In this document: in pieces, positions 28,001 to 28,521 of the stretch
Layout: each line of letters starts with the position of its first letter
Position numbering within the stretch: position 1 is the stretch's first letter
NCBI RefSeq assembly: GCF_003334355.1
Contig: NZ_QOWP01000039.1
Strand: one strand, 5' to 3'
Source of the DNA: Escherichia coli
GTDB taxonomy: Bacteria > Pseudomonadota > Gammaproteobacteria > Enterobacterales > Enterobacteriaceae
DNA: 30,913 bases
Position numbers and translations under genes: made by a program
Notes under the pieces: model-generated
The model's input: only the letters and a program-made list of their open reading frames with translations
Databases searched by the model: none
What the model was told of the DNA's origin: nothing

Positions 28001-28159
28001 CCGCTGGTTATCAGTCATGGTGCCGGTTCTGGCGCGCAAAACGCGGTAGGTACCGGCGTGATGGGCGGGATGTTTGCCGCAACAGTGCTGGCAATTTACT
28101 TCGTTCCGGTCTTTTTCGTTGTAGTGGAACATCTCTTTGCCCGCTTTAAAAAAGCGTAA
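25046..28159 (+). CDS. mdtF: RND multidrug efflux transporter MdtF (AcrB family, 1037 aa)
   Basis: 1037-aa ORF starting [23 protein letters not shown], a typical AcrB-family 12-TM transporter; recognised as MdtF. Confidence 0.95.
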
Positions 28160-28521
28160 CGTGTAAATGAGAGTAAGGTTGAACGTGAAGGTTCAGCCTT
28201 ACTCTTTCCTGCTAACCATTCACCACTCAACAACCAGCTAACCGTCAGGAATACCAGGCTTAGTACACAGCACTGAAAGTAGAAACCACTCCAGCCATTC
28301 GTCATCAATTTGAACAACACAATACTGACCCACATTCCCGTAATCGTATGAATTGTCAGCTTAATAATCCCAAACATGCCGAGTCTTTTCCTCCTGAAAA
28401 TACCGATACCGCCTGGCAAACTGCGAAAGAGAACTAGCCGGTAGCCCGGCAGAAATCATCAGGGAAGAGTTTCACATGAAGCAGGTGTGAGATCCTGACC
28501 AATATTCAAATGCGAAATATG

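Follow-up and report, generated by a model that had tools for sequence, protein, structure and literature searches.

The window analysed here, a 30,913-nucleotide stretch of Escherichia coli DNA, represents the E. coli acid fitness island. Between the convergent genes mdtF and gadW the minus strand carries a frame of 93 amino acids, which runs from an ATG at position 28377 to a TAA at 28096–28098. Sequence and open reading frame (ORF) list both confirm this frame as it had been described in the initial annotation. The ORF lies downstream of gadW on the same strand, at a spacing of 144 nt, in what was formerly the gadW 3′ UTR, and has been placed in the gadXW transcription unit (PMC10746267). 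The relevant features are the following:

28096–28377, minus strand: coding sequence of sORF15, stop codon included (from the sequence; equivalent to NC_000913.3:3663464-3663745, minus strand)
28390–28395, minus strand: Shine-Dalgarno motif AGGAGG, 12 nt upstream of the ATG (from the sequence)
28207–28377, minus strand: codons 1–57, conserved, predicted two-helix membrane hairpin (dN/dS, codon-position counts, hydropathy, AlphaFold2)
28099–28206, minus strand: codons 58–93, basic C-terminal tail (absent in E. fergusonii; net charge)
28096–28159, both strands: tail-to-tail overlap of the mdtF and ORF coding sequences, 64 nt (coordinates and phase arithmetic)
28169–28206, plus strand: intrinsic-terminator-like hairpin of mdtF with a 16-bp stem and a 6-nt loop, followed by UUUCCUGC (folding; inside ORF codons 58–70)
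28522–29250, minus strand: gadW, the same-strand upstream gene (window and K-12 annotation)
25046–28159, plus strand: mdtF, the convergent neighbour, whose 3′ end and terminator are overlapped by the ORF

The overlap of 64 nt agrees with the earlier description, since mdtF ends at 28159. An AGGAGG motif is indeed present upstream of the ATG, but it occupies positions 28390–28395 rather than 28389–28394, and the resulting spacing of 12 nt (not about 11 nt) is longer than optimal. The TATTTTCAGGAGGAAAA block and the ATG are invariant in 7/7 Escherichia lineages. In the same seven lineages the Shine-Dalgarno segment consists of 82% invariant columns, compared to 41–53% in the flanking spacer. An in-frame TTG at 28419 would extend the protein to 107 amino acids. 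This alternative start was rejected, because it lacks a Shine-Dalgarno sequence and the peptide between TTG and ATG is free to vary except at the Shine-Dalgarno block.

No RefSeq feature is annotated between mdtF and gadW in the 5,415 PGAP-annotated E. coli genomes containing the region or in NC_000913.3. The description of the ORF as unannotated therefore holds for RefSeq. It does not hold for some GenBank and UniProt records, in which submitter pipelines list the exact 93-residue sequence as a 'hypothetical/uncharacterized protein' (>1,000 contigs). Searches with the protein gave no family match in Pfam (E ≤ 10) or NCBIfam, and Rfam yielded no match at the position of the ORF. Of the 5,415 matching genomes, approximately 8 do not match contiguously over the whole region.

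The initial annotation leaned towards a spurious frame, i.e. an antisense or intergenic ORF that is open by chance and whose translation would be noise. Long chance ORFs are frequent in the window: as had been cautioned, antisense ORFs are common, and we counted 47 ORFs of at least 100 amino acids, many of them antisense to real genes (e.g. 27585–27929 within mdtF). The mdtF hairpin is located inside the ORF and the RefSeq pipelines do not call it, which also fits a chance frame. The length of the ORF by itself is within chance. Its conservation pattern, however, exceeds chance, as described below.

Orthologous loci were fetched from species-representative genomes via GadW and not via the ORF itself, in order to avoid a bias towards intact ORFs. 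This procedure yielded six loci (three E. coli-like lineages, Escherichia sp. E1V33, E. whittamii and E. albertii) with GadW proteins 96–75% identical. Together with the window, the frame is open and free of indels in 7/7 Escherichia lineages, out to E. albertii (GadW 75% identical). An alignment of the seven sequences from the gadW stop codon to mdtF shows a spacer with indels, followed by 279 nt after the ATG without any indel. The broken frame in close relatives, which had been named as evidence against a gene, was not seen in these lineages.

For the selection tests we employed codons 1–57, which overlap neither mdtF nor the hairpin. Variable sites in this segment are distributed over the three codon positions as 17:10:34 (chi-square p = 0.0006). 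Pairwise dN/dS values range from 0.05 to 0.22, compared to 0.03–0.11 for gadW from the same loci, and synonymous changes exceed nonsynonymous ones in every comparison (Fisher p from 1e-3 to 1e-9). The other five frames gave pN/pS values of 0.25–1.66 (0.77–1.66 unless the wobble position is shared with the ORF) and contain 12–48 stop codons each; the frame sharing the wobble position of the ORF carries 21. Codons 1–57 are under purifying selection throughout Escherichia, with a constraint similar to that on gadW. A comparison of frame conservation with synonymous drift had been suggested at the outset, and the conserved frame, the low dN/dS and the third-position excess all answer it in favour of a coding sequence.

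Among closer relatives, three synonymous changes separate the window from the phylogroup-distant E. coli strains ATCC 25922 and OV24, and F374 has three synonymous changes plus the conservative exchange S18T. K-12 differs by one nucleotide, resulting in R65C. The corresponding window position is 28185 (codon 65, in the hairpin loop), where CGT encodes Arg65 and K-12 MG1655 has TGT for Cys65; cysteine is also found in E1V33 and in the E69 lineage.

The ORF is identical to sORF15 of Schumacher et al. 2023 (mSystems 8:e01037-23, PMC10746267; Table S7). Coordinates, strand and sequence match except for one nucleotide, using a window-to-K-12 offset of +3,635,368 obtained from the comparison with NC_000913.3. 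The difference concerns residue 65, which is Cys in the published K-12 sequence and Arg in the window strain. sORF15 was discovered by inspection of the gadW 3′ UTR in Ribo-seq data (PMC10746267). At pH 4.4 versus pH 7.6 it was induced roughly 16-fold together with gadW, with a log2 fold change of +4.21 in Ribo-seq (adjusted p = 1e-38) and +4.03 at the RNA level, and footprint coverage was constant across the ORF (PMC10746267). The ribosome profiling that had been proposed as a check thus already exists for exactly this ORF. Full-length sORF15 with a C-terminal 3xFLAG tag was seen by Western blot after arabinose induction from a pBAD24 plasmid, i.e. not from the native locus (PMC10746267). The authors speculated on an association of sORF15 with GadC or MdtF, and they listed 'homologues' with >80% identity in unrelated genera, in a paper containing no selection analysis (PMC10746267). 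sORF15 has no entry in the one supplement of Stringer et al. 2021 that we consulted (neutral-pH data). In the collection of papers searched by full text, none later than Schumacher et al. 2023 mentions it.

These data speak against the chance frame on several counts. Such a frame would not account for dN/dS values near 0.1 and the genus-wide surplus of variation at third positions, for an invariant Shine-Dalgarno sequence and start codon in seven lineages, for a 54-residue homologue in E. fergusonii that diverges in a coding pattern (see below), or for published footprints and a tagged product (PMC10746267). The selection signature already refutes the spurious reading, to which we assign a negligible probability, and the earlier lean towards it is contradicted by the genus-wide purifying selection as well as by the published translation data. 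The existence of the gene is already published as a candidate, and the reference annotations (RefSeq, K-12) omit it. New in this work are the evidence for selection, the restriction of the family to Escherichia, the minimal form in E. fergusonii, the distinction between tail and core, and the non-conservation of the neighbouring sORF14.

The hairpin inside the ORF had been counted against it. It does lie there, but it spans 28169–28206 and is larger than the 28173–28201 given before. It folds with -27.3 kcal/mol on the plus strand and with -18.7 kcal/mol and an internal mismatch on the minus strand. Its G-U wobbles pair on the plus strand only; on the minus strand they become C-A mismatches, and no U tract follows. 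Across the seven lineages 98% of cells are paired, with one compensatory change from U-A to C-G. The U tract is weak (only UUUCCUGC), and a consensus terminator scan did not call the hairpin. Most simply, this element would be the terminator of mdtF. Because it is tuned to the plus strand, it is no argument against read-through on the minus strand, and the earlier objection to the ORF is not borne out.

The same arrangement raises the question of whether the element acts mainly as an RNA, namely as a gadW 3′ UTR antisense to the 3′ end and terminator of mdtF that controls stability or termination of the mdtF or gadW mRNA. Such control through convergent overlap would resemble the action of GadY on gadX-gadW, and translation of the ORF would be of secondary importance. 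The 64-nt overlap of the coding sequences and the shared hairpin would render the convergent transcripts complementary over >100 nt. Both transcription units are acid-induced (PMC10746267), and the tail shows no independent constraint at the protein level. On the other hand, an RNA function fails to explain the third-position variation and the low dN/dS in codons 1–57, which lie outside mdtF. E. fergusonii has preserved the coding core although its ORF stops short of the terminator and has no overlap with mdtF. Furthermore, no Rfam family is found here. As the main function of the element an RNA role is therefore unlikely, although an RNA role of the antisense overlap may coexist with that of the protein.

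The hydrophobic core proposed from the initial inspection is confirmed by hydropathy analysis, which resolves two hydrophobic segments at approximately residues 2–25 and 31–51. The basic tail is confirmed as well: the net charge is +1 for residues 1–57 and +10 for residues 58–93. An AlphaFold2 model based on the orthologue alignment contains helices at residues 2–26, 32–58 and 65–87, with a modest mean pLDDT of 63 and low confidence after residue 57. Two transmembrane helices were also predicted for sORF15 by DeepTMHMM (PMC10746267). We infer that the protein spans the inner membrane twice, as a hairpin of two helices whose termini both face the cytoplasm. This predicted N-in/C-in topology follows from the charge distribution and the positive-inside rule and would place the conserved motif N27-G-W-S-G31 in a periplasmic turn. 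A second conserved element, Cys36-Cys37, is located at the start of predicted helix 2.

The C-terminal 36 residues are found only in the E. coli/albertii/whittamii lineage. Linker codons 63–65, which form the hairpin loop, carry amino-acid replacements (Pro to Phe, Arg or His; Ser to Leu; Arg to Cys). A frameshift within the tail is found in some genomes, deposited or assembled, one of them Escherichia sp. E2593. These frameshifts often coincide with a T6 run, and those at the homopolymer may be sequencing errors. The third codon positions of the ORF and of mdtF fall on the same nucleotides throughout the 64-nt overlap. Variation in the overlap is limited to five columns, all of which (5/5) lie at this shared position and are synonymous in the ORF. 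Coinciding wobble positions represent the antisense phase that interferes least with both coding sequences. Since the variation is confined to the shared position, mdtF by itself is sufficient to account for the conserved last 21 codons. Protein-level selection on the tail is not demonstrable, as it is inseparable from the requirements of the mdtF coding sequence and of the terminator hairpin.

To determine the range of the family we searched 1.84 billion representative proteins with a profile of nine orthologues. The search yielded 19 matches, all from Escherichia, and no homologues outside this genus. Most of the matches are fragments, either cut by contig ends or frameshifted, and the sole informative one is from E. 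fergusonii. The homologue of E. fergusonii ATCC 35469 (CAQ90533.1) comprises 54 amino acids, MIVGIIKLALLGITAISVCMVLLNLILHGWSGFFFHCCLICLGLLASCLVVNKN. Its ORF is located at the equivalent place between gadW and mdtF and lies 20 nt downstream of the gene for the GadW orthologue (62% identical). It stops immediately ahead of a different and strong hairpin, which separates it from the convergent mdtF (93% identical), and the two coding sequences do not overlap. The E. fergusonii and E. coli proteins are 49% identical over 41 residues and have the motif GWSGF(Y/F)F(Q/H)CC in common. Nucleotide identities of the two ORFs are 0.58/0.79/0.25 for the three codon positions, compared to 0.70/0.83/0.41 for gadW and 0.93/0.98/0.54 for mdtF. 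This is the pattern of a diverging coding sequence. The E. fergusonii ORF has a GTG start, lacks AGGAGG and is devoid of the C-terminal tail. Given the GTG start and the missing AGGAGG, its expression may depend on coupling to gadW.

The E. fergusonii block (CU928158.2) is arranged as hdeD-gadE-mdtE-mdtF / 54-aa ORF-gadW, with gadX and gadA replaced by an AppA-like phosphatase and another AraC-family gene. According to the xenoGI paper the acid fitness island was acquired after E. fergusonii had diverged (PMC5799925). The sharp fall in identity at the 3′ end of the E. fergusonii mdtF suggests a recombination boundary.

Since the 54-residue form corresponds to the core only, we regard the two-helix core as the selected unit. 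A stricter version of this view holds that the gene is real but that only the core of approximately 55 residues is functional, the 36-residue tail being a neutral or recent by-product of stop loss made possible by the open antisense frame of mdtF. The E. fergusonii protein, which ends at residue 54 just before its own terminator, fits this version. So do the frameshifted tails in some genomes, the free variation of linker codons 63–65 and the low AlphaFold2 confidence past residue 57. Conversely, the tail frame is intact in 7/7 species-level lineages, the frameshifted versions occur at the T6 homopolymer and may be sequencing errors, and a tail that is basic and cytoplasmic agrees with the positive-inside rule and might serve to fix the topology or to bind a partner. 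Taking both sides together, we consider a dispensable tail a realistic possibility, though not the favoured one.

Type I toxins are usually shorter than 60 amino acids, contain a single helix and are accompanied by a dedicated antisense sRNA. The small size and hydrophobicity of sORF15 and the complementarity of its mRNA to a convergent transcript would be in line with a toxin-like membrane peptide that is restrained by antisense RNA from the overlapping mdtF 3′ end. With 93 amino acids and two predicted helices, however, sORF15 exceeds the size typical of such toxins by a wide margin. It lacks a dedicated antisense sRNA, and neither an Rfam match at the position nor a Pfam toxin family was found. 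Arabinose induction gave detectable protein with no toxicity reported (PMC10746267), and sORF15 is co-induced with a stress regulon. A toxin function is accordingly highly improbable.

Based on the selection analysis, the published expression data and the structural predictions, sORF15 is very probably a real protein-coding gene for a two-helix membrane protein, which, by analogy with other small membrane proteins of bacteria, most likely modulates a larger acid-resistance membrane protein. We propose the following sequence of events. sORF15 would be transcribed as the promoter-distal cistron of the gadX/gadW transcript. This assumption is based on the co-induction of its RNA with gadW and on the lack of an intervening promoter-like site: a crude scan of the minus strand revealed no sigma-70-like promoter in the interval from gadW to the ORF, and an independent transcript is thus not supported. 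The product would then sit in the inner membrane with both ends and the basic tail in the cytoplasm. There it may bind and modulate a larger acid-resistance membrane protein as a small accessory or regulatory subunit. In those lineages that possess the tail, this part would arise because the frame stays open across the mdtF terminator hairpin and continues antisense to mdtF.

By analogy, we tentatively favour the RND pump MdtF, encoded next to sORF15, as the partner, with sORF15 in an AcrZ-like role. Alternatives would be GadC or a sensor kinase, the latter in analogy to SafA. The linkage of the ORF to gadW and mdtEF is kept even in E. fergusonii, which mildly favours MdtF. Like AcrZ, sORF15 would be a small inner-membrane protein co-regulated with an RND pump, and its gene overlaps mdtF, both being acid-induced; the likeness is a functional analogy only. 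AcrZ differs in having 49 amino acids, one transmembrane helix and a gene unlinked to acrB, whereas sORF15 has two predicted helices and a basic tail. sORF15 does not belong to the AcrZ family as judged by Pfam (no match at E ≤ 10) and NCBIfam (no match). The most specific version of the model, in which sORF15 is a small-subunit regulator and AcrZ analogue that couples the GadW branch to a membrane machine (with MdtEF-TolC favoured) and in which the tail is a recent overprinting, remains speculative, and we put it forward tentatively.

SafA is a 65-residue single-pass membrane connector that is encoded in the safA-ydeO operon and activates PhoQ in the acid response. It resembles sORF15 as an acid-induced small membrane protein encoded with a gene for an AraC-family regulator, YdeO in that case and GadW in ours. 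The sORF15-gadW pair shows the corresponding arrangement, being adjacent on the same strand and co-induced at the RNA level (PMC10746267). SafA differs in being encoded upstream of its regulator gene, and family and profile searches revealed no sequence similarity to sORF15. HdeD and YhiD are likewise poorly defined membrane proteins of the same island and regulon. Both are larger than sORF15, cross the membrane several times and belong to Pfam families (DUF308 for HdeD); neither is homologous to it.

An acid-induced, conserved membrane protein gene is thus missing from the reference annotation of the best-annotated bacterium, E. coli K-12, within a much-studied acid fitness island. With the evidence for selection and the 54-residue form, the candidate sORF advances to a gene worth naming and knocking out. 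Targets worth mutating are now defined, namely the NGWSG motif, Cys36-Cys37 and the two-helix core, in distinction from the tail. Published deletions or 3′-end tags of gadW or mdtF may have disrupted sORF15 unnoticed.

A natural disruption was observed in E. coli O121 strain 201805972 (NZ_CP119441.1). Here an IS66 followed by an IS1 is inserted inside the ORF near codon 14 (approximately window position 28337) and splits the ORF from gadW. The gene is consequently dispensable at least in this background.

A small hairpin, GCCGG-GCUA-CCGGC followed by a U-rich run, is located at 28437–28450 on the minus strand between gadW and the ORF. It is the only terminator-like call in the region. Most lineages retain the stem with wobble substitutions and differ in the loop; one lineage (L002) has lost part of the stem. 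This hairpin could be a leaky gadW terminator or attenuator that sets the supply of transcript to the ORF. A second ORF from the same paper, sORF14 (PMC10746267), lies at 28434–28475 on the minus strand and encodes 13 amino acids from a GTG start, VKLFPDDFCRATG. We rejected it as a conserved peptide, because its stop codon is lost or moved in 5/6 relatives, with an internal stop in E. whittamii and a frameshift in E. albertii. If translated, sORF14 is more reminiscent of a lineage-specific upstream ORF or of noise than of a protein gene.

A placement of the sRNA GadF at the 3′ end of mdtF was discarded, since both PMC5145812 and NC_000913.3 locate GadF in the spacer between gadE and mdtE, and this sRNA has no bearing on the ORF. 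The Rfam match ES205 (105 bits) at 23643–23714 on the plus strand coincides with K-12 GadF (3658992-3659082) and represents the same RNA under a second name. Further Rfam matches on the plus strand are two copies of AgrB (13894–13977 and 14125–14208), ES036 (5075–5115) and GadY (29493–29606). The AgrB copies correspond to the agrA/agrB antisense RNAs of the dinQ locus, and AgrB, ES036 and GadY are all expected in a K-12-like region.
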